From an uncultured Planctomycetia bacterium (GTDB lineage: Bacteria; Omnitrophota; Gorgyraeia; Tantalellales; Tantalellaceae): DNA of 64,000 nucleotides. The notes under the pieces were generated by a model. That model ran no database searches, was not told the DNA's origin, and saw only the letters and a list, made by a program, of their open reading frames with translations. Both the position numbers and the translations under genes were made by a program. The stretch spans positions 202,075-266,074 of the forward strand of contig CAYPCX010000001.1 of the NCBI GenBank assembly GCA_964409365.1, given 5' to 3'. This document shows positions 4,603-58,724 of the stretch, piece by piece. How positions within the stretch are numbered: the stretch's first letter is position 1; each line of letters begins with the position of its first letter.

Positions 4603-5616
4603 ATGATAAAGGTCGGAGTTGTAGGGGCGACAGGGTATACCGGCGAAGAACTGGTGGACGTGCTTTTGCGCAACCCGGAAGTGGATATTACCGCGCTTGC
4701 CGCGCTAGTGGAAGAGGAAGCCCCTTTTTCAGAGATATATCCGCGATTCGAAAAGAAACTGTCGCTTGTCTGCAAGAACCTGGACGTGGAAGAAGTGGCC
4801 GCTGCCTGTGAACTCGTGTTCTTGGCTCTTCCGCATACCGTGTCCATGGAGATCGCGCCGATGTTCCTTAAAAAAGGGAAGAGAGTGATAGATCTCAGCG
4901 CGGATTACCGTCTTCCCCGGGAACTGTACGAGAAATGGTATTCGACCAGGCACGATGACAAAGATAACCTCCATAAAGCGGTATACGGTCTTCCGGAGCT
5001 TAACAGGGAGGAGATAAAAGGGGCCTCGCTCGTGGCGAACCCGGGGTGTTACCCGACCGGTGTCATTCTGGCTCTTCTTCCTCTGGCAAAAGAGCTCGCA
5101 GAGGCGGGGCAGGACATAATAGTTGATTCGAAGAGCGGTGTGACCGGTGCCGGCAGAAAGGCTTCGATATCACTTTCTTTCGGCGAGTTGGACGAGAACT
5201 TCAAGTGTTACAGGGCGAACGAGCACCAGCATATCCCTGAGATGGAGCACGTGCTTTCACAGGCGGCTTCTTCCGAAGTGCGGGTGAATTTCACGCCGCA
5301 TCTCCTTCCGTTGAGGAGAGGGATATTATCAACGATATATATCCGGCACGAAGGGTTGCCGCCGGAAGATAAGATCCGGAAGATGTACGCAAACCGGTAT
5401 GCCGGCGAACCTTTCGTCCGCTTTATGTCCTCGGTGGATATGCCCCAGCTTTTGGGCGTCGCCGGTTCGAACTATTGCGACATAGGGTTAAAAGTGGCGC
5501 GCGGCATGCTGATAATAGTATCGGCCATAGACAATTTGCTCAAGGGTGCGAGCGGGCAGGCTGTCCAGAACATGAACATAATGTACGGCCTCGACGAGAA
5601 GACGGGGCTCTTATAA
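4603..5616 (+). CDS. argC: N-acetyl-gamma-glutamyl-phosphate reductase
   Basis: IKVGVVGATGYTGEEL and the active-site motif NPGCYPT. Length is 337 aa. Confidence 0.95.
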   Translation: MIKVGVVGATGYTGEELVDVLLRNPEVDITALAALVEEEAPFSEIYPRFEKKLSLVCKNLDVEEVAAACELVFLALPHTVSMEIAPMFLKKGKRVIDLSADYRLPRELYEKWYSTRHDDKDNLHKAVYGLPELNREEIKGASLVANPGCYPTGVILALLPLAKELAEAGQDIIVDSKSGVTGAGRKASISLSFGELDENFKCYRANEHQHIPEMEHVLSQAASSEVRVNFTPHLLPLRRGILSTIYIRHEGLPPEDKIRKMYANRYAGEPFVRFMSSVDMPQLLGVAGSNYCDIGLKVARGMLIIVSAIDNLLKGASGQAVQNMNIMYGLDEKTGLL

Positions 5617-5634: not shown

Positions 5635-6819
5635 ATGAACAAGTTGCCAAAGGGATTTTTTGCTAACGGCATCCATTGCGGCCTGAAAAAGAAGAGAAAA
5701 GACCTTGCGCTTTTCTATTCGGAGAAAGACTGCAAGGTGTCGGCGCTTTTTACCACTAACGTGGTAAAGGCCGCCCCGGTGATCCTGGGAATAGAGGCCG
5801 TTCGTAAGAAGAAGCCCGTAAAAGCGGTTTTGATAAACAGCGGGAACGCCAATTGTATGACCGGTTCGCGTGGTCTCGAGGACGCCAGGGATATGGCGGC
5901 CATGGCCGCGAAAGAGCTCGGTGTTCCTAAAACAGCGGTACTTGTCTCATCGACAGGGGTAATAGGCCAAGCGATGCCGATGGAGCCCTTTGAAAAAGGG
6001 ATCCACCGGCTTGTGAGGGGGCTTTCACGATCGGGACTTCATGACGCGGCCGAAGGGATAATAACGACCGACCGGTTCCCGAAGAAGATGACACGCACGT
6101 TCACCGCGGGCGGTAAGACGGTGACGATGACCGGTGTGGCGAAAGGCGCGGGGATGATACACCCGAACATGGCCACGATGCTCTGTTATGTCATGACGGA
6201 CGCGAACATAACGAAAAAAGCAATGGACAAGGCGCTTTTTTCGAGTGCGGAGGTATCTTTCAATGCCATTACCGTCGACGGGGACATGAGCACGAACGAT
6301 ACGGTCATGCTTCTCGCGAACGGAGAGGCCGGGAACAGGGTGATAGGAAATAGCGGCCGTGATCTTGCCGTGTTCCAGGAGAATCTCGACCAGGTCATGA
6401 AAGAGCTGGCGAAGATGATCGTCCGGGACGGTGAAGGCGCGAGCAAATTCATTGAAGTGCACGTAAAAGGCGCCAGGACGAAGACGGGAGCGAAAAAAGC
6501 GGCCGAAGCAATAGCAAGTTCCATGCTCGTCAAGTGCGCCGTTCAGGGAGGCGACCCCAACTGGGGGCGTATAGCTTCCTCGGTAGGTTCCAGCGGTATC
6601 CGGTTCGATCCGGACAAAATGGAGATAAAGATGGACGGCGTGACTTTTTTCAAAAAGGGGAGTGTGGTCTCTTCGAGAGAAGAGGAAACGGGGCACGTTT
6701 TCAAGGGGAAAGACGTTTCGATAGAAGTGAACCTTCATCGCGGGAAGAGCGAAGCTACGTTCTGCAGCTGCGATATCTCGAAAAGATATATCACGCTTAA
6801 CTCGTATTATACGACATGA
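5635..6819 (+). CDS. argJ: Bifunctional glutamate N-acetyltransferase / amino-acid acetyltransferase
   Basis: The self-cleavage-site region ATMLCYVMTDANI. Length is 394 aa. Confidence 0.95.
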   Translation: MNKLPKGFFANGIHCGLKKKRKDLALFYSEKDCKVSALFTTNVVKAAPVILGIEAVRKKKPVKAVLINSGNANCMTGSRGLEDARDMAAMAAKELGVPKTAVLVSSTGVIGQAMPMEPFEKGIHRLVRGLSRSGLHDAAEGIITTDRFPKKMTRTFTAGGKTVTMTGVAKGAGMIHPNMATMLCYVMTDANITKKAMDKALFSSAEVSFNAITVDGDMSTNDTVMLLANGEAGNRVIGNSGRDLAVFQENLDQVMKELAKMIVRDGEGASKFIEVHVKGARTKTGAKKAAEAIASSMLVKCAVQGGDPNWGRIASSVGSSGIRFDPDKMEIKMDGVTFFKKGSVVSSREEETGHVFKGKDVSIEVNLHRGKSEATFCSCDISKRYITLNSYYTT

Positions 6820-7747: not shown

Positions 7748-7862
7748 ACTGAGGTTCTGGGGACACGTCTGTGTAGACAACATGTAAACGACAAAACTGA
7801 GGTTCTGGGGACACGTCTGTGTAGACAACATGTAAACGACCAGACGTGTCCCCAGAATATAT
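7748..7862 (+). terminator. REP-like terminator, tandem (left-arm half copy plus complete copy)
   Basis: actgaggttctggggacacgtctgtgtagacaacatgtaaacgac occurs twice. Only the second copy is completed by cagacgtgtccccagaatatatttc. Confidence 0.6.
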
Positions 7863-7883: not shown

Positions 7884-9065
7884 ATGGATATGAACGGGGT
7901 CAAGAAGTTATATGATGAGTATGTGCTGTCTACATATACCCGGCAGGATATATGCCTGGTGAAAGCTGACGGCATCTGGGTAGAGGATATCGAGGGAAAG
8001 AGATACCTGGATTTTTTCCCGGGCTGGGCCGTGAGCGGCATAGGGCATCGTCATCCCCGGGTGGTCCGCAGGCTGAGAGAACAGATGGACAGGATACTGC
8101 ACGTGTCCAATAATTTCTACAACGATGTCCAGCCGGTGATCGCCGAAAAGATAATAAAGCATTCTTTTCCGGGCAAGGTGTTCTTCTGCAACAGCGGCGC
8201 CGAGGCGAACGAGGGCGCGATAAAGCTCGCGCGCCGTTACGGGAAAGGCTCAAGATACGAGATCATCACGATGGAGCAGTCTTTTCACGGACGGACGCTG
8301 GCCACGTTAACGGCTACGGGGCAGGAAAAGGTCAAGAAGGGTTTTTCACCGCTTCCGGCAGGGTTCAAGCATGTCCCCTTTAACGACATAGACGCTTTTC
8401 TGGCGGCCGTGACCGAAAAAACGGTCGCCGTTATAGTGGAACCCATACAGGGGGAAGGCGGGATAAACGTCGCCGATGATAAATATATGCGGTCATTAAG
8501 CGATATCTGCCGGGATAAGGACATGCTGCTGATGGTCGACGAAGTACAGACCGGCATGGGCCGTACGGGGAAGATGTTCGCCTACCAGCATTACGGGGTA
8601 GAGCCGGACGTCATGACCCTGGCCAAGTCGCTCGGAGGGGGTCTGCCGATCGGGGCGCTGGTCGTGGGTTCGAAGCACGCTGACGTCCTGCCGCCCGGTT
8701 CTCATGCTTCGACCTTCGGCGGGAGCCCGATAGTCTCCGCCGCCGCGCTCGGGGTATTCGAAGCTATAGAGGAAGAAGGCCTTCTCGAGAACGCGATCGA
8801 AATGGGAAAGTATCTGGTCGGGAAACTGAACGGGTTGAAGGAAAGATACCCGTCGATAGAGACCGTCAAGGGCAAGGCGCTGATGGTGGGCGTGAAACTG
8901 GCCGTGGAGGACGCTTCCTTCCTGGCCGAGGAATGCGCGAAAGAAGGACTTTTGATAAACTGCACGCAGAAGAACGTACTGCGTATCATGCCCTCGTTGA
9001 CAGTAACTGAAAAGGATGTCGATGAGGCCGTGAACAGGCTTTCAAAAGCATTGGAGAAGATATGA
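7884..9065 (+). CDS. argD: Acetylornithine aminotransferase
   Basis: Class-III aminotransferase motifs FFCNSGAEANE and LLMVDEVQTGMGRTG. Length is 393 aa. Confidence 0.9.
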   Translation: MDMNGVKKLYDEYVLSTYTRQDICLVKADGIWVEDIEGKRYLDFFPGWAVSGIGHRHPRVVRRLREQMDRILHVSNNFYNDVQPVIAEKIIKHSFPGKVFFCNSGAEANEGAIKLARRYGKGSRYEIITMEQSFHGRTLATLTATGQEKVKKGFSPLPAGFKHVPFNDIDAFLAAVTEKTVAVIVEPIQGEGGINVADDKYMRSLSDICRDKDMLLMVDEVQTGMGRTGKMFAYQHYGVEPDVMTLAKSLGGGLPIGALVVGSKHADVLPPGSHASTFGGSPIVSAAALGVFEAIEEEGLLENAIEMGKYLVGKLNGLKERYPSIETVKGKALMVGVKLAVEDASFLAEECAKEGLLINCTQKNVLRIMPSLTVTEKDVDEAVNRLSKALEKI

Positions 9066-9976
9066 AAAAAAAGGACCTTATATCGCTTGGCGATCTGAGC
9101 TCGAAAGAGATATTAAGCATAGTCAAGCTTGCCTGGAAACTGAAAAGAGCGCCCCTTTCCAGAAAAGGCATATTTAAGGACAAGACACTGGCTATGATAT
9201 TCCAGAAGCCGTCTAACAGGACCAGGATATCGTTCGAGGTGGCGATGGTCCAGCTGGGAGGGTACGCGCTGTATCTCAGTCCGAATGAAATAAAGATGGG
9301 TACGCGTGAAAGCGTCAAGGACGTGGCCAGCGTGATATCCCGTTACGTGGACGGCATAGTGGGACGGGTGTATTCGCACCAGGATATCATTGACATGGCG
9401 AGATATTCTGATGTTCCGGTCATAAACGGTCTGTCCGATACCGCCCATCCATGCCAGGCGTTAAGCGATATATTCACGATAATGGAAAAAGCGCGGAACC
9501 TAAGGAAGACCACCCTGGCGTATGTCGGCGACGGCAACAACGTGCTTAACTCGCTTCTCATGGTCTCGGCAAAGATGGGTGTGAGCATGAGGGTCGCTAC
9601 GCCCGAAGGATACGGCCCGCTTCAGGCGATCGTGAACGAGGCCGCGGAAGAGGCCGCGCGTAACCGCGCGAGTATACAGATATTCACCGATCCCCATGAA
9701 GCTGTCCGGGACAGTGACATAGTTTACACCGATGTATGGGTGAGCATGGGCCGCGAGGAAGAAAGAGAGAAGCGCCTGAAGGACTTTGAGAAGTTCCAGG
9801 TCAATGAACGGTTGATGAAGTCGGCGAAAAAAGACGCGCTCATAATGCACTGTCTTCCGGCGCACCGCGGGGAAGAGATAACGGACGTTATAGACGGGAA
9901 GAATTCGATCGTCTACGACCAGGCGGAGAACCGCATGCACGTGGAGAAAGCGATACTTCTTAAATACTTACAGTAG
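9062..9976 (+). CDS. argF: Ornithine carbamoyltransferase
   Basis: STRTR carbamoyl-phosphate motif and HCLPAHRGEE. The start overlaps the argD stop. Confidence 0.9.
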   Translation: MKKKDLISLGDLSSKEILSIVKLAWKLKRAPLSRKGIFKDKTLAMIFQKPSNRTRISFEVAMVQLGGYALYLSPNEIKMGTRESVKDVASVISRYVDGIVGRVYSHQDIIDMARYSDVPVINGLSDTAHPCQALSDIFTIMEKARNLRKTTLAYVGDGNNVLNSLLMVSAKMGVSMRVATPEGYGPLQAIVNEAAEEAARNRASIQIFTDPHEAVRDSDIVYTDVWVSMGREEEREKRLKDFEKFQVNERLMKSAKKDALIMHCLPAHRGEEITDVIDGKNSIVYDQAENRMHVEKAILLKYLQ

Positions 9977-9990
9977 GGATGAATAATGGA

Positions 9991-10094
9991 AGTGTCAAAG
10001 TGTCATCGTGCGCTTACTAGTGTCAGAGTGTCAAAGACAGCACTATGACACTTTGACACTAGCGAACACAGTGAGCGATGATACTCTGACACTG
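9991..10094. repeat. About 103-bp complex palindromic element (GTGTCA/TGACAC family), copy 1
   Basis: AGTGTCAAAGTGTCA ... TGACACTTTGACACT 15-bp inverted arms plus nested AGTGTCAGAGT/ACTCTGACACT. It lies between argF and argG. Confidence 0.65.
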
Positions 10095-11285: not shown

Positions 11286-11308
11286 CAAGGATAAAGGAAA
11301 AAGTAACA

Positions 11309-11411
11309 AGTGTCAAAGTGTCATCGTGCGCTTACTAGTGTCAGAGTGTCAAAGACAGCACTATGACACTTTGACACTAGCGAACGCAGTGAGCGATGAT
11401 GCTCTGACACT
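11309..11411. repeat. About 103-bp complex palindromic element, copy 2 (about 97% identical to copy 1)
   Basis: The same sequence as 9991-10094 with three substitutions. It lies between argG and argH. Confidence 0.65.
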
Positions 11412-14890: not shown

Positions 14891-15757
14891 ATGATAAAGG
14901 GTTCGTATGTAGCTATCGTTACGCCATTCAAGAACGGTAAGGTGGACGAGAAGGCGTTCCGCAAGCTTATAGAGTTCCATATAGACAAGGGAAGCGACGG
15001 TCTTGTGCCGTGCGGTTGCACCGGGGAAGCCGCCACGCTGAGCATGGCCGAGCAGAAACGGCTTATCAAGATAACCGTGGAGACGTCAGCGAGACGCATC
15101 CCGGTGATCGCCGGGACCGGCTCTAACAACACGGAAGAAGCGCTGGAGTTGACCACTTTCACCCGGAAGGCAGGATGTGACGGGGCGCTCATGATAACGC
15201 CTTATTACAACAAACCGACGCCGGAAGGGCAGTACCGGCATTACGCGAGAGTCGCCAGCAAGGTCGACATCCCCATAATGCTGTACAACGTTCCTTCACG
15301 GACGGGGATATCCATGTCCCCGGCCACGGTAGCGCGCCTCGCGAAGATAGATAATATTGTCGCGATAAAGGAGGCGGCCGGCAGCGTACAGCAAGTGATG
15401 GATATATTGAACCTCTGTGATATCACGGTGATGAGCGGCGATGACGCCATGACCCTTCCGTTCATGTCCGTGGGCGCGGCAGGCGTGGTAAGCGTGGTGG
15501 CCAATATCATCCCCGGCCGGGTGCACGATCTTGTCCAGACCTTTCTGGACGGCAGGACAGAGACCAGCCGCAATATCCATTATGGGATATTGGAATTGTG
15601 CAAGGCCATGTTCATCGAGACCAATCCCATACCCGTGAAAACAGCCCTCAGCATAATGGGCATGGTGAACGAGGAGTGGCGGCTTCCGCTTTGTGAGATG
15701 CGCAAAGAGAACAAGGAAGCGCTGAAAACGGTGCTGAAAAAGTTCAAATTAATTTAG
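14891..15757 (+). CDS. dapA: 4-hydroxy-tetrahydrodipicolinate synthase
   Basis: VAIVTPF, GTTGE-like CGCTGEAATL and the Schiff-base lysine region. Length is 288 aa. Confidence 0.9.
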   Translation: MIKGSYVAIVTPFKNGKVDEKAFRKLIEFHIDKGSDGLVPCGCTGEAATLSMAEQKRLIKITVETSARRIPVIAGTGSNNTEEALELTTFTRKAGCDGALMITPYYNKPTPEGQYRHYARVASKVDIPIMLYNVPSRTGISMSPATVARLAKIDNIVAIKEAAGSVQQVMDILNLCDITVMSGDDAMTLPFMSVGAAGVVSVVANIIPGRVHDLVQTFLDGRTETSRNIHYGILELCKAMFIETNPIPVKTALSIMGMVNEEWRLPLCEMRKENKEALKTVLKKFKLI

Positions 15758-15760
15758 GTT

Positions 15761-15836
15761 GCAGGTATCAGGTAGCAGGTGTCAGGCGGAGGGAGAAGAC
15801 CTGTTTTTTCCAAAGACCTGAAACCTGAGACCTGAC
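15761..15836. repeat. CAGGT-heptamer / ACCTG-heptamer mirrored hairpin element
   Basis: gcaggtatcaggtagcaggtgtcagg ... cctgaaacctgagacctgaca. Between dapA and dapB. Confidence 0.55.
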
Positions 15837-17875: not shown

Positions 17876-18376
17876 ATGGCGACGGCTTACCTTTGTATCG
17901 GATCGAACGTAGGGGATAAACGGTCGAACTGTGAAGAAGCCGTCAGGCGGTTACAGGCGGCCGGGGACATCAAGGTCCGGGCCCGGTCCGGTCTTTACAG
18001 GACGGAACCCGTAGGGGGCCCGCCCCAGGAAGAATACCTCAACGGTGCGCTCGGCATCGAGACAACGCTGTCTCCCGGGGATCTGCTCCGCGTCCTCAAG
18101 GATATCGAAAAGGACATGGGACGCAGAGAGACGAAAAAGAACCACCCCCGCATCATCGATATCGATATCCTTTTCTATGATGATCTGGTGATGAACTCCG
18201 AAGGGTTGACGATACCGCATCCCCGCGTACATGAAAGGTATTTTGCGCTGAAAGGGCTCGCGGAAATAGCTCCTTTTGCGTCGCATCCGGTCGTCGGCAA
18301 GACCGTGAGTGAGTTATACGAAGAGGTCGGGGAACAGAAGACAGAGGACAGAAAACAGAAAACAGAAACGAAATGA
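17876..18376 (+). CDS. folK: 2-amino-4-hydroxy-6-hydroxymethyldihydropteridine pyrophosphokinase
   Basis: AYLCIGSNVGD, RTEPVGGP and RIIDIDILFY motifs. The C-terminal tail EQKTEDRKQKTETK is encoded by a GACAGAA-type repeat. Confidence 0.85.
   Translation: MATAYLCIGSNVGDKRSNCEEAVRRLQAAGDIKVRARSGLYRTEPVGGPPQEEYLNGALGIETTLSPGDLLRVLKDIEKDMGRRETKKNHPRIIDIDILFYDDLVMNSEGLTIPHPRVHERYFALKGLAEIAPFASHPVVGKTVSELYEEVGEQKTEDRKQKTETK
18333..18370. repeat. Purine-rich half of the GACAGAA-type element, lying inside the folK 3' end
   Basis: cagaagacagaggacagaaaacagaaaacagaaacg. No pyrimidine-rich partner follows. Confidence 0.5.
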
Positions 18377-19300: not shown

Positions 19301-20284
19301 GTGATGAAAAGACCGGAGTTTGACGCGAAATACAAGGAACACCTGACCAGGAAGATACTGGACCTGAAGAAAGAAAAAGGGGCGCTTATCGTCGCCCATA
19401 ATTACCAGCGCGACGAGATACAGGATATTGCCGACATAACGGGCGATTCGTACGCCCTTGCCTGCAAGGTAGCTAAGGCGAAAGAGGAACTGGTGGTCTT
19501 CTGCGGCGTGAAGTTCATGGCGGAGAGCGCTTATATGCTTAGCCCGGGAAAGACGGTGCTGCTCCCGGTCGAGGAAGCGGGATGCCCGCTCGCTGATATG
19601 ATCACCGTGGAGAAGCTCAAACAGAAGAGGCAGGAGTATCCGGAAGCCGCGGTAGTATGCTACGTGAACTCTTCGGCGGCGGTCAAGGCGGAAAGCGATA
19701 TATGCTGCACCTCGTCCAACGCCATACAGATCGTCAGATCCCTGAAGGAAGAGAAGGTGATCTTCGTGCCCGATAGGAACCTCGGAAGGTACGTGAGAGA
19801 GCGCGTTCCGGAAAAAGACGTGATACTATGGGACGGCTACTGCATCGTGCACAAGCGCCTGACCAAAGAAGAAGTGCTGGGGACTAAGAAACTGCACCCC
19901 GAAGCCGAGTTCATAGTGCATCCCGAGTGTCAAAAGGAGGTGCTTGACCTTGCCGACTATATAGGAAGCACGGCGGGTATGATAAAGTACGTAAAGGAAT
20001 GTCCGCGCAAGGAATTCATCATCGGCACTGAAATGGGTATCATATATCGTCTTAAGCACGACAATCCGGAAAAACAGTTTTATGTTCCGGCCGACCATTT
20101 TATATGCGCCAATATGAAGCTGACGACCCTGGGATGGCTGGCAAGGTCCCTGGAGAAGGAGATCTACAAAATAGAGGTCCCCGAGGGTGTGGCGGCAAAG
20201 GCCCGCAAGGCGCTCCAGAGGATGGTAGACGTTACCGAGAACCAGATGACAGATGACAGACGTCAGAAGACAGAAGACAGATGA
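19301..20284 (+). CDS. nadA: Quinolinate synthase A
   Basis: LIVAHNYQ, FCGVKFMAE and the three Cys ligands. The C-terminal tail ENQMTDDRRQKTEDR is encoded by a repeat. Confidence 0.9.
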   Translation: MMKRPEFDAKYKEHLTRKILDLKKEKGALIVAHNYQRDEIQDIADITGDSYALACKVAKAKEELVVFCGVKFMAESAYMLSPGKTVLLPVEEAGCPLADMITVEKLKQKRQEYPEAAVVCYVNSSAAVKAESDICCTSSNAIQIVRSLKEEKVIFVPDRNLGRYVRERVPEKDVILWDGYCIVHKRLTKEEVLGTKKLHPEAEFIVHPECQKEVLDLADYIGSTAGMIKYVKECPRKEFIIGTEMGIIYRLKHDNPEKQFYVPADHFICANMKLTTLGWLARSLEKEIYKIEVPEGVAAKARKALQRMVDVTENQMTDDRRQKTEDR

Positions 20285-20323
20285 CAGGATTACTCTTTTC
20301 TGTTCTCTGTCCTCTGTTTTCTG
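20244..20323. repeat. R/Y mirrored element (CAGAAGA heptamers / TCTGTYC heptamers), spanning the nadA stop
   Basis: cagatgacagatgacagacgtcagaagacagaagacagatgacagg ... cttttctgttctctgtcctctgttttctg. Confidence 0.55.
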
Positions 20324-22900: not shown

Positions 22901-22949
22901 AGTTCCCGGAAATCCTGTCACTTACGTAAGTTGTTTCCCCCGCATCCTA

Positions 22950-23117
22950 CTTGCCCCTCGGCGTGGATACGACGTGCAGGATAAGTTCGACCACATAACT
23001 TATGTTCACTTCGTTCCATAAGTTATGGTCTCACTTGCCCCTTGGCGTGGATACGACGTGCAGGATAAGTTCGACCACATAACTTATGTTCACTTCGTTC
23101 CATAAGTTATGGTCTCA
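22950..23117. repeat. Exact tandem duplication of an 84-bp unit (2 copies, 1 mismatch), each with an internal 11-bp hairpin
   Basis: cttgcccctYggcgtggatacgacgtgcaggataagttcgaccacataacttatgttcacttcgttccataagttatggtctca occurs twice. Each unit begins with a -35-like TTGCCC. Confidence 0.8.
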
Positions 23118-23118
23118 C

Positions 23119-23146
23119 TTGACTTTTTTCACTTCTTTTGTATAAT
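23119..23146 (+). promoter_or_regulatory. Sigma70 consensus promoter (TTGACT - 16 nt - TATAAT)
   Basis: Located immediately after the tandem repeat and 60 nt upstream of the IMPDH-like gene. Confidence 0.5.
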
Positions 23147-29565: not shown

Positions 29566-31358
29566 GGATGATACGCACACACACTTGCGGTGAATTAACG
29601 GCAAAGGACATCAAAAGGGATGTCGTGCTTTGCGGGTGGATAGTCGCCAGAAGGGATCACGGCGAGATAATCTTCATGGACCTCTGGGACAAGCACGGCA
29701 TGACGCAGATCGTCTTTGACCCCGAAGAGAACAAGACAGCTCATGAAAAAGCCCATCAGCTGCGCAATGAGTACTGCGTGAAGATCTATGGCAAGGTCGC
29801 TAAAAGGCCCGAAGGCACGATCAACCCGAAAATAACGACAGGCGAGATCGAAATAGACGTGGACAAAATAGAAGTTCTTTCCGAATCCGACACGACCCCG
29901 TTCGAGATAAGGGAAGACTGGGGAAAGAAGAATATCTCGGAAGAGGTCCGTCTCAAGTACAGGTATCTGGACCTCAGACGTCCCTCGATGCTGGAGAGGC
30001 TCCGCATAAGGCATAAGGTCTGCAAGTCTTTCTCCGATTTCCTTGACGGGGAGGGTTTTATATCGGTGGAAACGCCCATGCTCACCAAGTCCACCCCGGA
30101 AGGAGCAAGGGATTATCTGGTGCCCTGCAGGATACAGCAGGGCAGTTTCTACGCGCTTCCGCAGTCGCCGCAGATATTCAAACAGCTTCTCATGGTAGGG
30201 GGGGTCGAAAAATATTTCCAGATAGTCAGATGTTTCCGCGATGAGGATCTCCGCGCCGACAGACAACCGGAGTTCACGCAGCTCGACATGGAGATGTCGT
30301 TCGTCGAACAGGACGACATTTTCGACGTTTGCGAACGCATGTTCAAAAAGCTTTTCAAGGACGTAGCGGGAGTGGATATAAAGATCCCTTTCCGGAGGAT
30401 GGATTATGACGAAGCGATGGACCGTTACGGCAGCGATAAACCGGACACGCGTTTCGATCTTTTCCTGCATGACCTGGCCGGGGAGGTGAAAGATTGCGAT
30501 TTCAAGATATTCAGGGACGTCCTCGCCGCGGGAGGCAGGGTGATGGGGCTCGCCGCGCCGGGTTACGGCGGGATAAGCAGGAAAGAGATAGATGACCTTA
30601 CTTCTTTTGCCGCCGATCACGAAGCCCGGGGGCTGGCGTATTTCAAGGTGGAAGAAAACGGACTCGTTTCCCCGGTCGCGAAGTTCTTCTCTAAAGGAAC
30701 GCTTGAGGCCCTGCGCGAGAGGACCGGCGCGAAGACGGGCGACATGATATTCATGGTCGCCGACGCCGACAAAGATATCGCGCGCGGAGCGCTCGGCGCT
30801 CTAAGGCTCAAGATCGGCAGGGACAAGGGTTTAATAGACCAGGACAGGTTCGACCTTCTCTGGGTGGTTAACTTCCCGCTTTTCAAGTGGAACAGGGATG
30901 AGAAGAGATGGGTATCGGAACACCACCCGTTCACGTTGTTCAGGGAAGAGGACATGGAGTTCCTGGACAAGGGCGAGCTCGATAAGGTCAGGTCGCTGTC
31001 CTATGACTGCGTCCTGAACGGGAGCGAGATAGCTTCGGGCAGCATAAGGATACACAGGAGGGACATACAAAAGAAGATATTCGACACGCTCGGCCTGACA
31101 AAGGAGGAGTGCGAAGTAAAGTTCGGCTTCCTGCTGGAAGCCTTCAAGTATGGCCCTCCTCCGCACGGGGGGCTGGCTTTCGGTATAGACAGGCTGATAA
31201 CCATGTTCACGAAGGACCAGTCTATCCGTGAGGTCATCCCGTTCCCCAAGACGCAGAAAGGCGTTTGCCCTCTTACCGGGGCGCCGACACCGGTGGATAA
31301 CAAACAGCTCGGGGAATTGGGACTGAAGTTAGTAAAAGCGAGAAACAATGACAAATGA
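29566..31358 (+). CDS. aspS: Aspartate--tRNA ligase
   Basis: N-terminal OB fold (RTHTCGEL...GWI), the FRDEDLRADRQPEFTQLD motif 2 and the GGLAFGIDRL motif 3. The ATG at 29566 is preferred over the upstream ORF-track start. Confidence 0.9.
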
Positions 31359-31404
31359 CAAAATCCAAATGACAAAAGTTTTGTCATTTGTGCTTTGATA
31401 TCTG
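31346..31404. repeat. AATGACA heptamer repeats plus an AAATGACAAAAG/TTTTGTCATTT hairpin, overlapping the aspS stop
   Basis: aatgacaaatgacaaaatccaaatgacaaaagttttgtcatttgtg. Confidence 0.5.
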
Positions 31405-31425
31405 TCATTAACAAAGGGGGACGGT

Positions 31426-32830: not shown

Positions 32831-35084
32831 AGAACTGAAAAAGCAGGGAGTAGAAGGCATAGTGGGCATTCTGAAAAGGAATGAAACGTTCTCGATACTT
32901 TTGATATTTTTGTTCCTGGTGGCGGCCCTTTCCAGCATATTCATCAGTCCGCGTTTTTACCATGGTATCGTGAACGAGGGCGATGTCGCTCTCAAAGAAG
33001 TATTCGCGCCGTATGATTTCACTTATTTTTGGGGAGTGGACGAGGAGGGAACACAAAAAGCCAGAAAAGAAGCAGTAGAAGCGGTACCATATTTTCTGTA
33101 TCGCGATATCGACTCCGAGGAAAAAACAAGATCGCGGCTGGGCAGGTTCTTCGACGCCCTGAAACAGCAGAAGCAGGAGGAGGCCGCTCTGGACGTGAAA
33201 ATAGCGGCCGTTAAAAAAGAGGGTGGAACAGACTTGTCCGACAGGGACATCCGGTCGCTCATGGATCACCCGGATGCGGACGCCCTGAGGAGCACGACCC
33301 TTGAGATCCTCGACAAGATCTACCTGCTTGGTTTTATCGGCAAAAACAATATCGAGATGCTTAAGAAAGAGCAGGCGGAGAAGGTCATTATATTTGATAG
33401 GGCTACGGGTGTGTATGTAGAACGCGACGCGCAGGACCTTCTCGACGAGGACAGGATGAAGGAGACCGTGCGCGAGATGGTCACGGAAGACCTTGACGCG
33501 AACAGGAAGACCAAACAGGCGGACGAGGCTCTGCTGACCGGGTACATATCGCCGAACCTCGAGCCGGACGAGAAGACCACTTTGGACGAGAGGGAAGAGG
33601 CTCTTAATAAGACAGAGCCGATATACAAGAGCTGGACCGTGAAGAAGAACGAGCTCATCATCGGTAAAGGCATGAGGGTAAGCGCCCGGCATGTCGCGCA
33701 GATAACGCAGATAAGGAGCATTTTTAGGCCCGGCAAGTCCCCGGTGTTCTTTTTCGGCGTACTCCTTCTTTTTGCCCTCATGGGCCTTGCCGCGGGCATT
33801 TTTACGGCCTTTAACCGGAAAATGAATTTCCTGAGGAACACCAAGGAGATCGCGATCGTCCTTATCAATATGCTGCTGGTTATCGTGATCTCGGATTTCA
33901 TAGTGCAGTCCCCGCAGCCCAGTTATTTCATCCCGATGGCGAGCGTAGGAATGCTTATCACGCTTCTTGTGGGTTTCAATATAGGTTTCTTGAGCGTGGT
34001 CATCATGAGCATACTGATCTCTGTCCTTGTCGGCGGGAAGGTGGAACTGGCATTCGTACTGTTCATAGGGAGCGTAGTAGGTATGTTCGCCGTCAGGGAG
34101 GCGCGGCGCCGCGCGAATATATTGTGGGCCGGCCTTTTTGTGGGCCTGGCGAAGTTCCTCGCGATAGTCAGTATTGGCCTCATAAACAACATGGATATCG
34201 ATTTTTTCCTGGACGACGGCGTTTGGGGCATAGCCAGCGGCATGTTGTCGGGTTTCATTGTCATGGGTCTTCTCCCCGTGTTCGAACATTTCTTTAAGGT
34301 GCCCACTAATATCAGCCTGCTGGAGTTATCCGACCTTAATCATCCGCTTCTCAGGAAACTGGCGGTCGAGGCCCCGGGCACATACCATCACAGTATAATG
34401 GTAGGGAACCTCGCCGAGGCGGCCTGTGACGCGATAGGGGCGAACAGCCTGCTGGCGCGCGTGGGCGCATATTATCATGATATCGGCAAGATGACCAAGG
34501 CGGAATATTTCAGCGAGAACGAGATGGGCGCCGGCAGCAAGCATTCCAAGCTCACGCCGCAGATGAGCGCGCTTATCATAGGTAAGCACGTGAAGGAAGG
34601 CGTCGAGATGGCCAATAAGTATAAGCTCAACAAGACGATAATCGACTTCATCAACCAGCACCACGGCACCAGTCTGATACAGTATTTTTACCAAAAGGCC
34701 ATCGAAAAATCCCCGCAGGGTGAAGAGCTTAACGAAGCGGTTTACCGTTATCCCGGGCCCAGGCCGCAGACGAAGGAAAGCGCCATAGTGCTTCTCGCGG
34801 ACTCGGTAGAGGCATCGAGCAGGTCTCTTGAGGAACCGACCCCTTCGAGCATAAGGAATCTCGTAAGGAAGATAGTGAACAACAAGTTCATAGACGGCCA
34901 GCTTGATGAGTGCGACCTCACGCTCAAGGACATGCACAAGATAGCGGAGAGCTTCGTGAGGGTGCTCATGGGTTTTTTCCACACGCGGCTAAGCTATCCC
35001 GAAGACGTGAAAAAGGACAATAGCGGACAACCAGATGAGAATAACGGTAAACTGCGAAAACAGAAACCGCCGAAGAAAAGTTGA
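32823..35084 (+). CDS. 7TM-receptor / HD-domain phosphohydrolase (PgpH/YqfF-like cyclic-di-AMP phosphodiesterase family)
   Basis: An extracellular N-domain, 7 TM helices and a C-terminal HD domain (HHSIMVGNLAE...YYHDIGKM). Length is 753 aa. Confidence 0.85.
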   Translation: MNKELKKQGVEGIVGILKRNETFSILLIFLFLVAALSSIFISPRFYHGIVNEGDVALKEVFAPYDFTYFWGVDEEGTQKARKEAVEAVPYFLYRDIDSEEKTRSRLGRFFDALKQQKQEEAALDVKIAAVKKEGGTDLSDRDIRSLMDHPDADALRSTTLEILDKIYLLGFIGKNNIEMLKKEQAEKVIIFDRATGVYVERDAQDLLDEDRMKETVREMVTEDLDANRKTKQADEALLTGYISPNLEPDEKTTLDEREEALNKTEPIYKSWTVKKNELIIGKGMRVSARHVAQITQIRSIFRPGKSPVFFFGVLLLFALMGLAAGIFTAFNRKMNFLRNTKEIAIVLINMLLVIVISDFIVQSPQPSYFIPMASVGMLITLLVGFNIGFLSVVIMSILISVLVGGKVELAFVLFIGSVVGMFAVREARRRANILWAGLFVGLAKFLAIVSIGLINNMDIDFFLDDGVWGIASGMLSGFIVMGLLPVFEHFFKVPTNISLLELSDLNHPLLRKLAVEAPGTYHHSIMVGNLAEAACDAIGANSLLARVGAYYHDIGKMTKAEYFSENEMGAGSKHSKLTPQMSALIIGKHVKEGVEMANKYKLNKTIIDFINQHHGTSLIQYFYQKAIEKSPQGEELNEAVYRYPGPRPQTKESAIVLLADSVEASSRSLEEPTPSSIRNLVRKIVNNKFIDGQLDECDLTLKDMHKIAESFVRVLMGFFHTRLSYPEDVKKDNSGQPDENNGKLRKQKPPKKS

Positions 35085-35496
35085 TCTTTCAAAAGCGAAG
35101 AAAGTAGCCGAGACCGTATTGAAGACCTTCGGCAAAAAAGACGCCGTGGTGAACATTGTCTTTATCAGCAACCAGAAGATAAGGGCGCTCAACCGCATGT
35201 ATCTCGGCAAGGACTCTTCGACGGATGTCCTTGCCTTCCCGAGCGGGGATACTGCGGGTCTCAGGTCTCAGGTCTCAGGTCTCAGGAAAGGTTTTCTGGG
35301 GGACGTGGCGATATCGTCGGACAAAGCGGCCGGGAACGCCGGGGAATACGGCACTGCTTTCAAAGAGGAAATAGCCCTTTACGTGATACACGGGGTCCTG
35401 CACCTCCTGGGGTACGATGACAGGACGAAAAAAAGCAGAAAAGTTTTACAGCGAAAAGAACATGAGCTCCTACAAAAAGCAAAAGCAGTCATATAG
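35035..35496 (+). CDS. ybeY: Endoribonuclease YbeY (rRNA maturation factor)
   Basis: HGVLHLLGYDD zinc-binding motif. It contains an in-frame (GGTCTCA)x4 heptamer insertion (GLRSQVSGLRKG). Confidence 0.85.
   Translation: MRITVNCENRNRRRKVDLSKAKKVAETVLKTFGKKDAVVNIVFISNQKIRALNRMYLGKDSSTDVLAFPSGDTAGLRSQVSGLRKGFLGDVAISSDKAAGNAGEYGTAFKEEIALYVIHGVLHLLGYDDRTKKSRKVLQRKEHELLQKAKAVI
35257..35286. repeat. (GGTCTCA)4 heptanucleotide tandem repeat inside the ybeY CDS
   Basis: gggtctcaggtctcaggtctcaggtctcagg. The same motif occurs in intergenic CAGGT-family elements. Confidence 0.7.
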
Positions 35497-36190
35497 AGGC
35501 GACACTTTTTTCCACAGCGTCTCCGCGGCCCTGGAGGGGATAGTGCACGTGCTCAAGCAGGAGCGCAGTATGCGCCTGCATTTTCTCATAGGTTTTCTTG
35601 TCGTCATAATGGGCATCTACCTGGGGCTGAGCTCGGTAGAGTTCATGATCCTCTGTCTCGCCGTGAGCTTTGTCCTGGTGTCAGAGATGGTCAACACCGC
35701 CATCGAGCATTTTGTGGACATTATGAGGGAAGAGTTCCATCCCGTGGCCAAGATCGTAAAGGATATAGCCGCGGCCGCGGTGTTCGTCAGCGCCGTGAAC
35801 GCGACCATAGTAGGATATTTTCTGATAATAAAACAGCTGGATTTCGGACTGAAGGATTCCTTTCTGAGGATCAAGCAGTCGCCGTGGCATATAACGCTGA
35901 TAGCTCTTCTGATAGTCGTGGGACTGGTGCTTTTTGTTAAAATATTGCGCGGCGAAAGATCGCTCTTGAGGGGCGGAATGCCCAGCGGGCATACCGCCGT
36001 GGCGTTCGCGATATGGACGGCGGTCTCACTGGTGACCGGGAATATCCTGGTGAGCGTGCTGGTGCTTTTGCTTGCCCTTATTATCGCGAGAAGCCGGCTG
36101 ATAAACGGATTGCACACGCTGTGGGAGATCATAGCCGGGGCATTTCTGGGCACTTTGGTGACGCTCTTGGTGTTTCAGTTACTTTCGTAA
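35417..36190 (+). CDS. dgkA: Diacylglycerol/undecaprenol kinase (DgkA) fused to a C-terminal PAP2-family phosphatase domain
   Basis: The N-terminal half matches prokaryotic DgkA (three TM helices; SEMVNTAIE). The C-terminal half carries PAP2 motifs PSGH and SRLINGLHTLWE. The start could be the ATG at 35462. Confidence 0.7.
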   Translation: MTGRKKAEKFYSEKNMSSYKKQKQSYRGDTFFHSVSAALEGIVHVLKQERSMRLHFLIGFLVVIMGIYLGLSSVEFMILCLAVSFVLVSEMVNTAIEHFVDIMREEFHPVAKIVKDIAAAAVFVSAVNATIVGYFLIIKQLDFGLKDSFLRIKQSPWHITLIALLIVVGLVLFVKILRGERSLLRGGMPSGHTAVAFAIWTAVSLVTGNILVSVLVLLLALIIARSRLINGLHTLWEIIAGAFLGTLVTLLVFQLLS

Positions 36191-36220
36191 AGTATCGAGT
36201 ATCAAGTATCAAGTATCAAG
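36191..36220. repeat. (AGTATCR)4 heptanucleotide tandem repeat
   Basis: agtatcgagtatcaagtatcaagtatcaagg, directly after the dgkA stop. Confidence 0.7.
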
Positions 36221-41816: not shown

Positions 41817-41830
41817 AGAAAGGATAGGTC

Positions 41831-41920
41831 GCAGGTATCAGGTCTCAGGTGTTAGGGTAAAGAAGAAGACGTGTCTTTATCCAACGGCCTGAAACCTGGA
41901 ACCTGAAACCTGAAACCTGA
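41831..41920. repeat. CAGGT-heptamer / CCTGAAA-heptamer mirrored hairpin element (same family as 15761-15836)
   Basis: gcaggtatcaggtctcaggtgttagg ... cctgaaacctggaacctgaaacctgaaacctga. It ends 2 nt before the sigma-factor ATG. Confidence 0.55.
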
Positions 41921-41922
41921 AT

Positions 41923-42792: not shown

Positions 42793-42836
42793 GGTGGTTT
42801 TTTAGTTGTTAGTTATGTAAAGCGAGTTTAACAGGG

Positions 42837-43100
42837 GTCCCCGTAGCTAAATGAGACTACAAGTTACGGGAGCGAAGCAGCCGTAACTTGTAAAGTCGAA
42901 TTTATGCAAAGCGTTTAAACTAGCGTCCCCGTAGCTAAATGAGGCCACAACTTAAGGAGCGAAGCGAACAGAAGTTGTAAGGCCGAATTTATGCGAAGCA
43001 GGTTCAACTGGTGTCCCCGTAGCTAAATGAGGCCACAACTTAAGGAGCGAAGCGAACAGAAGTTGTAAGGCCGAATTTATGCGAAGCAGGTTCAACTGGT
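42837..43100 (+). repeat. Three tandem 88-bp structured repeat units, each beginning with the first 12 nt of the downstream tRNA-Arg
   Basis: The GTCCCCGTAGCT anchors lie at 42837, 42925, 43013 and 43101, an exact 88-nt period. Units 2 and 3 are identical. Unit 1 differs, and its changes keep both the inner and outer hairpin stems base-paired. Confidence 0.85.
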
Positions 43101-43177
<77 letters not shown>

Positions 43178-57957: not shown

Positions 57958-58638
57958 ATGAAAATAGTAAATCAAAAAGTTACAACAGCTAAAACTATGG
58001 GATTAGAAGGCGCGATCAAAAAAAAGTTCGATGCTTGGACTTTGGGGCTAAACCGGGAAGAAAGCCTTATCAGGATATTCGAAAAAGTAAGGGATATACC
58101 GTTCGCCGTGGACAATGAACTTTTCGATCTTGAAAAAGGCCCTGTCAGGATGCTTGAGCGCAATAAAGGTTTTTGCGTCCCGAAGCATTATCTCCTGGGG
58201 ATGATGTTCCATGAGCTGGGCGTTCCGGTGAAGTACTGCACCTATGCTTTCAACTGGGGCGAACAGAGGATCGATTATCCCGAGCGGCTGAAGGAGCTGG
58301 CCCGGAGAATACCGGCCACATACCATCTGGCATGCAGGGCTTTTCTCGGCGGCAAATGGGTGTTCATAGACGCTACATGGGACCCGCCCCTCAAGAAAGC
58401 CGCTTTTGATGTGAACGAGAACTGGGACGGCAGGAGCGATATGGCGAATGCCGTAAAGCCTTTAGATGAGTTTGTCCATGAGGATGCTTCGGAAAGAGAA
58501 AAGGCGTTCGGCGAAAAACTAAAGAATTACACCCTGTCCGAAAAACTTGAACTTTCCAGGTTTTCCATAGAGCTTAACAGATGGCTTGAGGAAGTCAGGT
58601 CTCAGGCCCCAGGTCGCAGGCCTGGGGGACAAGCGTGA
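57958..58638 (+). CDS. Transglutaminase-like (papain-fold Cys-His-Asp) domain protein
   Basis: GFCVPKHYLL catalytic Cys context, with the downstream H and D (FIDATWD). The ATG at 57958 is chosen so as not to overlap the convergent gene. Confidence 0.55.
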   Translation: MKIVNQKVTTAKTMGLEGAIKKKFDAWTLGLNREESLIRIFEKVRDIPFAVDNELFDLEKGPVRMLERNKGFCVPKHYLLGMMFHELGVPVKYCTYAFNWGEQRIDYPERLKELARRIPATYHLACRAFLGGKWVFIDATWDPPLKKAAFDVNENWDGRSDMANAVKPLDEFVHEDASEREKAFGEKLKNYTLSEKLELSRFSIELNRWLEEVRSQAPGRRPGGQA

Positions 58639-58676
58639 AGCCATATTGTATTTTTAGTCCATTCATGATAGACTTT

Positions 58677-58707
58677 CACCTGAAACCTGAGACTTGAAAC
58701 TTGAAAC
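58677..58707. repeat. Pyrimidine-strand half of the CCTGAAA heptamer element
   Basis: cacctgaaacctgagacttgaaacttgaaac. No CAGGT partner lies upstream. Confidence 0.4.
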
Positions 58708-58724
58708 TTTTCCCGGAGGTGTTC

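Follow-up and report, generated by a model that had tools for sequence, protein, structure and literature searches.

A perfect heptanucleotide repeat within an Omnitrophota ybeY gene and a frameshifting one-unit difference between assemblies

The window, by which we mean the whole 64-kb stretch of DNA that was analysed, contains a series of genes that all lie on the + strand in the order phoH, 7TM-HD (pgpH-like), ybeY, a dgkA-PAP2 fusion, DUF502 and recO. The ybeY open reading frame (35035..35496, + strand) encodes a predicted rRNA-maturation endoribonuclease of 153 aa that belongs to Pfam family PF02130 (UPF0054). It matches the PF02130 profile with an E-value of 1.2e-32 and a score of 113 bits (cut-off, 25) over profile positions 10-128 of 129, and it is matched by phmmer to the Aquifex YbeY 1oz9 with an E-value of 2e-20. 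Similarly, an AlphaFold2 model built from 40 sequences (pLDDT 90.1, pTM 0.85) has the YbeY fold, and the best Foldseek matches of this model are 1oz9, 7y7o and 1xm5, with TM scores of 0.75-0.82. A total of 90 homologs were found, of which those with a named source came nearly all from Candidatus Omnitrophota; the closest distinct ortholog is 62% identical. When genome contigs were searched with YbeY, the best match was 56% identical and the species' own representative was not among the matches. The original prediction described this RNase as essential, a term that is too strong given that YbeY of B. subtilis is essential yet suppressible (PMC6144821) and that a ybeY deletion in E. coli is viable, with defects (PMC9159920).

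The first 50 nt of ybeY (35035-35084) are shared with the 3′ end of the 7TM-HD gene. Its 3′ neighbour (35462..36190, + strand) joins a diacylglycerol kinase (DAGK_prokar) to a PAP2 phosphatase domain, and the start of this fusion gene overlaps the 3′ end of ybeY by 35 nt (35462-35496). To judge from the latter overlap, an early stop in ybeY may uncouple the translation of dgkA-PAP2 as well.

The metal-site motif HGVLHLLGYDD is found at residues 119-129 (35389..35421, + strand). In S. aureus YbeY the ligands are His120, His124 and His130 (PMC9895993). Two of the corresponding histidines, H119 and H123, are present here, and the position that aligns to S. aureus His130 is occupied by D129 (35419-35421). 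This aspartate is conserved at a level of at least 90% among 39 aligned Omnitrophota orthologs, and an Asp is likewise found in the ortholog from a Verrucomicrobia locus (L021). The alignment thus gives HxxxHxxxxxD as the predicted metal motif of the Omnitrophota YbeY group, as compared to the canonical H-x3-H-x5-H. Aspartate is able to bind zinc.

Between the conserved N-terminal half of the protein and this motif, the coding sequence contains a perfect heptanucleotide microsatellite, (GGTCTCA)x4 + GG, at 35257..35286 on the + strand. The presence of a perfect 30-nt heptamer repeat inside the YbeY coding sequence, as originally predicted, was confirmed both by reading the sequence, in which every unit is identical, and by Tandem Repeats Finder, which reported a period of 7, 4.3 copies, 100% matches and a score of 60. 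In fact, this is the sole perfect array among the approximately 20 period-7 arrays that the same program reported in the window, the rest of which are 73-92% matched. The array includes 23 consecutive identities between positions i and i+7, for which about 9e-10 occurrences are expected per 64 kb. Moreover, the 14-mer GGTCTCAGGTCTCA, when up to two mismatches are allowed, occurs 11 times in the window as compared to 0.34 occurrences expected from shuffles. The array corresponds to nucleotides 223-252 of the 462 in ybeY, and is therefore located mid-gene, with the next start codon 176 nt away. It is translated as GLRSQVSGLR (codons 75-84), and the translation across it, residues 75-86, reads GLRSQVSGLRKG; its placement ahead of HGVLHLLGYDD (residues 119-129) also agrees with the initial description.

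The position of the repeat coincides with the sole low-confidence segment of the otherwise confident AlphaFold2 model. This segment, the only one with pLDDT <50, covers residues 74-82 (35254..35280, + strand) and is located in a loop (residues 70-86) that connects the strands formed by residues 65-69 and 87-94. HMMER, in aligning the protein to Aquifex YbeY 1oz9, places gaps at LRSQVS and at KG. The stretch from the invariant V65 to G89 comprises 23 residues here and 10-37 residues, with a median of 20, in the 39 Omnitrophota orthologs; with a single heptamer unit the loop would be 16 aa long, as it is in P0003 and P0004, two close homologs. A comparable ybeY repeat was found in none of 83 loci and 90 proteins, including none of the 39 aligned orthologs, and the orthologous ybeY linkers gave no sign of repetitiveness at the DNA level. 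Because the repeat falls in a loop that the model leaves disordered, because the orthologs span 10-37 residues in this region, and because their linkers are non-repetitive, the insertion lies where the fold is most tolerant of length changes. An examination of insertion tolerance in a YbeY model had been suggested along with the original prediction, and its outcome favors tolerance. In the suggested comparison to relatives, the ortholog linkers were non-repetitive and varied in size. In the course of this comparison an AAAGCGG-like signal with 79% matches was noted in the ybeY loop of the Verrucomicrobia locus, and was dismissed as merely a Lys/Arg-rich loop.

The sequence GGTCTCA is CAGGTCT read in another phase, and heptamers of this kind are found elsewhere in the window. 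At least six gene junctions contain heptamer elements (1922-2011, 15756-15835, 20243-20323, 31347-31410, 41826-41921 and 58596-58709), each of which consists of a 5′ heptamer arm, a loop and a complementary 3′ heptamer arm; one position in every 7 nt is degenerate or mismatched. Only a few bases separate the end of each element from the ribosome-binding site or the start codon of the gene that follows. The five elements that were folded (all but 31347-31410) form long imperfect hairpins with RNA fold z-scores of -3.1 to -7.5. A search of Rfam over the window identified a tRNA only and no family match for these junction hairpins. For example, the intergenic hairpin at 41826..41921 (+ strand) has the arrangement (CAGGTNT)n - loop - (ACCTGNA)n, includes an exact GGTCTCA at 41841, and folds with an MFE of -47.4 and a z-score of -7.5. 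A second hairpin of the CAGGTNT family, at 15756..15835 (+ strand; z -4.1), includes the reverse complement of GGTCTCA at 15826, and a third, at 58596..58709 (+ strand; z -3.1), includes an exact GGTCTCA at 58598. In addition, a solitary heptamer array is located at 36190-36220.

The ybeY array has both its heptamer family and its strand orientation in common with the 5′ arms of these intergenic CAGGTNT hairpins. It is, however, neither at a gene junction nor accompanied by an inverted partner: no complementary arm was found near it, the minus-strand matches to the 14-mer being located only at 15819, 38093, 41904 and 58681, and its local RNA fold (z +0.94) is no better than that of shuffles. 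Furthermore, its units are identical, while those of the intergenic arrays differ at the N position. A family relation between the ybeY array and the intergenic CAGGTNT arrays is likely on sequence grounds, because the exact unit recurs at 41841 and 58598 and as a reverse complement at 15826; by rough estimate, fewer than 1% of random heptamer arrays would match the CAGGTNT family in any phase or on either strand. Since the ybeY array is solitary, perfect and unstructured, the simplest reading is that it represents a recent expansion, in place, of a family unit rather than a finished element that was transposed. With no inverted partner, no RNA structure and units that are perfect rather than degenerate, the array is not a duplicate of one of the intergenic hairpins. 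The original prediction had offered, as an alternative to a switch, a fixed insertion derived from CAGGTCT-type elements; the shared exact unit makes a relation to this family likely, but the insertion does not appear to be fixed, given the three-unit contig described below.

Two copy-number alleles of the array were identified among assembled sequences. ENA assembly ERZ27256770 includes a protein of 110 aa (P0018) that has the same N-terminus through ...AGLRSQVSG and then runs out of frame. The 270-kb contig from this assembly (L001) was compared to window positions 25035-45462 (20.4 kb), over which there are 0 mismatches and two indels. One indel is the loss of a single heptamer unit from the ybeY array, leaving three units; the other is the loss of one 88-bp unit at 42826-43112, a unit that is also missing from a contig with four heptamer copies (L002). 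P0018 is identical to the translation predicted for three units, and is without the metal site located 3′ of the repeat. Its shifted frame is ended by a TAG at 35372..35374 (+ strand), which would be used with 0, 6 or 9 units as well. Indeed, full-length YbeY is predicted only for one, four or seven units, giving 146, 153 and 160 aa, respectively. The claim that slippage by one unit would frameshift YbeY is therefore supported by a one-unit difference between assemblies of the same strain, the three-unit form of which encodes the 110-aa product.

Three units are present in L001, L085 and L089, and the three-unit allele is a single assembly-level record (one MEGAHIT contig). An identical DgkA was found on eight contigs, seven of them with four units and one with three units, and an identical PgpH was found on seven long contigs from ENA and JGI, on which ybeY is ON in six cases and OFF in one. 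A Logan contig with the four-unit allele was seen in 4 samples. All re-fetched pieces were exact substrings of the window after the missing unit was restored, and the degenerate arrays within the 20.4-kb overlap (31347, 36190, 41832 and 41888) are unchanged in L001. By exact look-up, the products predicted for 0, 1, 2, 5, 6, 7 and 8 units were absent from a collection of 15 billion proteins. Scans of JGI metagenome DNA for the exact flanks with one to five units between them, and for the right flank alone, returned 0 matches each. Similarly, no additional contigs ending at the ybeY array, which would hint at a bubble within a sample, were encountered; the look-ups of PgpH and DgkA gave the same seven to eight contigs.

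The region of the other indel, 42826-43112, is an 88-bp tandem repeat with 3.3 copies and 88% matches, which abuts and slightly overlaps a tRNA-Arg(CCT) gene at 43101-43177. Relative to the window, one unit is missing from both contigs that were compared over this repeat (L001 and L002, each with a k141_ name), a difference that may reflect either assembly collapse or real copy-number variation.

The explanation that we favor, and to which we assign about an even chance, is that the array is a genuinely unstable but incidental heptanucleotide microsatellite that generates ON/OFF frameshifts in ybeY. A unit of the CAGGTNT family would recently have expanded in place within a disordered, length-tolerant loop of YbeY, and replication slippage would now move the array in steps that alter the reading frame, because the unit is 7 nt long. 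Four units, as in the reference, would correspond to the ON state, and three units would correspond to an OFF state in which the 110-aa product ends before the H-x3-H-x5-D metal site; the array would thereby act as a stochastic frameshift hot spot. Most likely it originated as a by-product of the tendency of this lineage to grow heptamer arrays, and it would be tolerated because three extra units lengthen a floppy loop by seven residues. In turn, the OFF state would be tolerated at least transiently, without selection having shaped a switch. We infer slippage as the cause, the recency of the expansion (from the perfect identity of the units) and the lack of adaptive tuning. It may also be that the OFF allele is leaky, in that a -1 slip at A_GGA_AAG, right after the array, would restore the frame. 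Several points weigh against an incidental origin. A real OFF allele would be the consensus of its sample, which is hard to explain for a deleterious null and pushes towards either selection or tolerance, or towards an artefact. To expand from one unit to four, the array would have had to gain 21 nt at once or to pass through frameshifted intermediates that were viable, and, with the nearest ortholog only 62% identical, the ancestral state of the repeat is not reconstructable.

It is conceivable, if rather unlikely, that the population always carries four units, a neutral extension of the loop by seven residues that became fixed in frame, and that the three-unit record arose as an assembly or sequencing artefact. 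Four units are found in seven of the eight contigs, across ENA, JGI, NCBI and Logan, and the missing 88-bp unit, which is absent as well from a contig with a k141_ name from another sample (L002), resembles repeat collapse. MEGAHIT starts at k = 21, and a 30-nt array of period 7 has repeated 21-mers, such that one pass through the resulting de Bruijn cycle would yield 23 nt, or three units; since 25035-45462 includes no other perfect period-7 array of at least 28 nt, there is no internal control for such a collapse. Unitig-based assemblers, however, normally do not traverse cycles of this kind, and the four-unit path is linear at k of at least 29. A three-unit path at k=141 should therefore require supporting reads, and the length of the contig, 270 kb, would imply good coverage. 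A contig of another sample (ERZ27256778), whose k141_ name suggests the same pipeline, has four units. Finally, a change of a single unit is the typical product of genuine slippage.

If the three-unit allele is instead genuine, selection might be keeping the array perfect as a contingency locus, with slippage toggling YbeY in subpopulations as a form of bet-hedging on ribosome maturation, growth rate or RNA quality control, much like neuO. The consensus of one entire sample is OFF, with 0 substitutions over 20.4 kb, a situation that is easier to understand if OFF is sometimes favored; the array alone is perfect among many degenerate heptamer arrays; and the OFF product is wholly without the catalytic motif. 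There is also a precedent in the heptanucleotide switching of neuO from within its open reading frame (PMC13001214), and several bacteria either survive without YbeY or can suppress its loss (PMC6144821, PMC9159920). We nevertheless consider an evolved switch unlikely. The array has a unit that is not a multiple of three within an open reading frame, as a contingency locus should, but it has neither the tract length nor the placement of one. With four units (4.3 copies), it is below the PhasomeIt cut-off of at least five for units of 4 nt or more, and the authors of that program caution that mutability may be <1e-5 even for tracts that satisfy the cut-offs (PMC6321876). It is located mid-gene, whereas tuned phase-variable simple sequence repeats (SSRs) cluster close to N-termini, and mid-protein SSRs as a whole tend to be suppressed (PMC3315296), and its target is a housekeeping RNase rather than a surface or restriction-modification gene. 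The length polymorphism comprises one three-unit contig, a single assembly-level record that could be a de Bruijn-graph artefact, against seven four-unit contigs, no forms with two, five, six or seven units having been found in 15 billion proteins, and the device is not conserved, a comparable repeat being present in 0 of 83 loci and 90 proteins. Of the phase-variable switch that was originally predicted, the frameshifting change of unit number is thus retained (three-unit versus four-unit contigs), and the evolved switch is disfavored by copy number, gene position, the housekeeping target and the restriction to two alleles. The stronger proposal that ybeY is truly phase-variable in this Omnitrophota lineage, generating subpopulations with altered ribosome biogenesis that are, for example, slow-growing or stress-tolerant, we likewise regard as unlikely. 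Least probable by far is that the array functions as a cis element in the coding sequence, either as a binding site on RNA or DNA or as one half of a long-range hairpin. Its unit and strand orientation are those of the 5′ arms of the intergenic hairpins, and heptamer arrays just 5′ of start codons have been proposed to be binding sites for post-transcriptional regulators (PMC4679880). The ybeY array, by contrast, differs from the junction elements in lying 223 nt inside the open reading frame and at a distance of 176 nt from the start codon that follows, has no complementary arm nearby, folds no better than shuffles, and is missing from every ortholog.

Viewed as an incidental but unstable microsatellite, the ybeY array belongs with the known neuO-type SSR frameshift sites. 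The closest worked-out analogue is neuO itself, the O-acetyltransferase gene of the CUS-3 prophage in E. coli K1, in which a tandem 7-nt unit (AAGACTC) is located within the open reading frame, slippage alters the number of copies, full-length protein is made in only one modulo-3 class, translation of the repeat gives a heptad peptide, and some genomes have the ON genotype while others are OFF (PMC13001214). The two differ in that neuO carries 3-53 units, most commonly 20 in the surveyed genomes and 21 in strain MS7163, as compared to four in ybeY (PMC13001214). The neuO repeat is near the 5′ end of a phage-borne gene for surface modification, whereas the ybeY array is in the middle of a chromosomal gene for a housekeeping RNase; neuO is ON when the number of units is divisible by 3, and ybeY when it leaves a remainder of 1; and switching of neuO has been measured experimentally, while ybeY is represented by one OFF record from an assembly. 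Classical SSR contingency loci, such as the tetranucleotide repeats of Haemophilus and the homopolymers of Neisseria and Campylobacter, are similar in having a unit length not divisible by three within an open reading frame, an indel mechanism and an ON/OFF outcome. They differ in having many more units or long homopolymers, in being N-terminal in surface or restriction-modification genes, and in occurring in host-adapted pathogens for which high switching rates have been measured (PMC6321876, PMC3315296).

A second point of comparison is offered by the heptameric SSRs that are over-represented in many bacteria, which prefer about four units, are heterogeneous in their units, are located near the borders of open reading frames, often as inverted pairs, and have been proposed to be caused by polymerase slippage (PMC4692102). 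The arrays of Xanthomonas and Nostoc (GGGANTN / GGGGAYT) and the TAACTGA arrays of Beggiatoaceae have one or two degenerate positions and about four units, and are positioned near the open reading frame borders of co-directional genes, where inverted pairs can form stem-loops (PMC4692102, PMC4679880); the Beggiatoaceae arrays occasionally intrude into the ends of open reading frames (PMC4679880). The window arrays at 1922-2011, 15756-15835, 20243-20323, 41826-41921 and 58596-58709 fit this description, the unit found in ybeY is among theirs, and the hairpins at the junctions are similar to the heptameric SSRs that occur as pairs in Xanthomonas (PMC4692102). The units found here are neither G-quadruplex forming nor TAACTGA, and Omnitrophota were outside the scope of both studies (PMC4692102, PMC4679880). 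The ybeY array, unlike those of Xanthomonas, Nostoc and Beggiatoaceae, is perfect, solitary and deep within a conserved domain, a setting in which heptamer arrays of this kind are under-represented.

Should the three-unit allele be real, a near-universal and often essential RNase would have been knocked out by microsatellite slippage, and this knockout would have risen to the consensus state of a natural population that is otherwise clonal across the compared 20.4 kb. It would follow either that YbeY is dispensable or only conditionally costly in Omnitrophota, or that core genes of the translation machinery can be switched by frameshifting outside of pathogens. Were phase variation to be true, the logic of contingency loci would extend to a core housekeeping function of an uncultured environmental bacterium. 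If the allele is an artefact, the array would represent a neutral loop insertion and a warning about calling short-tandem-repeat variants in metagenome assemblies. The locus is in addition a concrete case of a little-studied bacterial heptamer repeat invading a conserved enzyme, where a surface loop tolerates it.

Heptamer arrays were also observed in other coding sequences of the window and near ybeY in other organisms. Two arrays, at 18334-18368 and 20243-20284, enter the 3′ ends of genes and are translated as C-terminal tails. The first encodes the tail EQKTEDRKQKTETK of HPPK/FolK (17876-18376), and the second encodes that of NadA (19301-20284). Since 8 contigs encode an identical HPPK protein, this degenerate array is stable. 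Paired heptamer arrays adjoin ybeY loci in several unrelated phyla, as read in the sequence for L020 (Omnitrophota; 5932-6050) and L017 (Heliobacteriaceae; 497-663), and as taken from the Tandem Repeats Finder listing for L079 (2579-2657) and L016 (812-940) from Blastocatellia, L026 from Bacillota (426-534 and 4877-4933), L037 from Anaerolineales (5327-5405) and L062 from Clostridia (8090-8180 and 9526-9604). L020 has the same ACAGAAG/CTTCTGT unit family as the window arrays at 1922-2011 and 20243-20323, yet its YbeY is only 39% identical. Other repeats in the window include an 84-bp unit present in 2.1 copies at 22949-23121 (98% matches) and a 48-bp unit present in 1.9 copies at 7748-7840 (100% matches). 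Lastly, identical clusters of short 8-mer repeats are located 1.3 kb apart, at 9990-10061 and 11308-11379, suggesting a duplicated segment.
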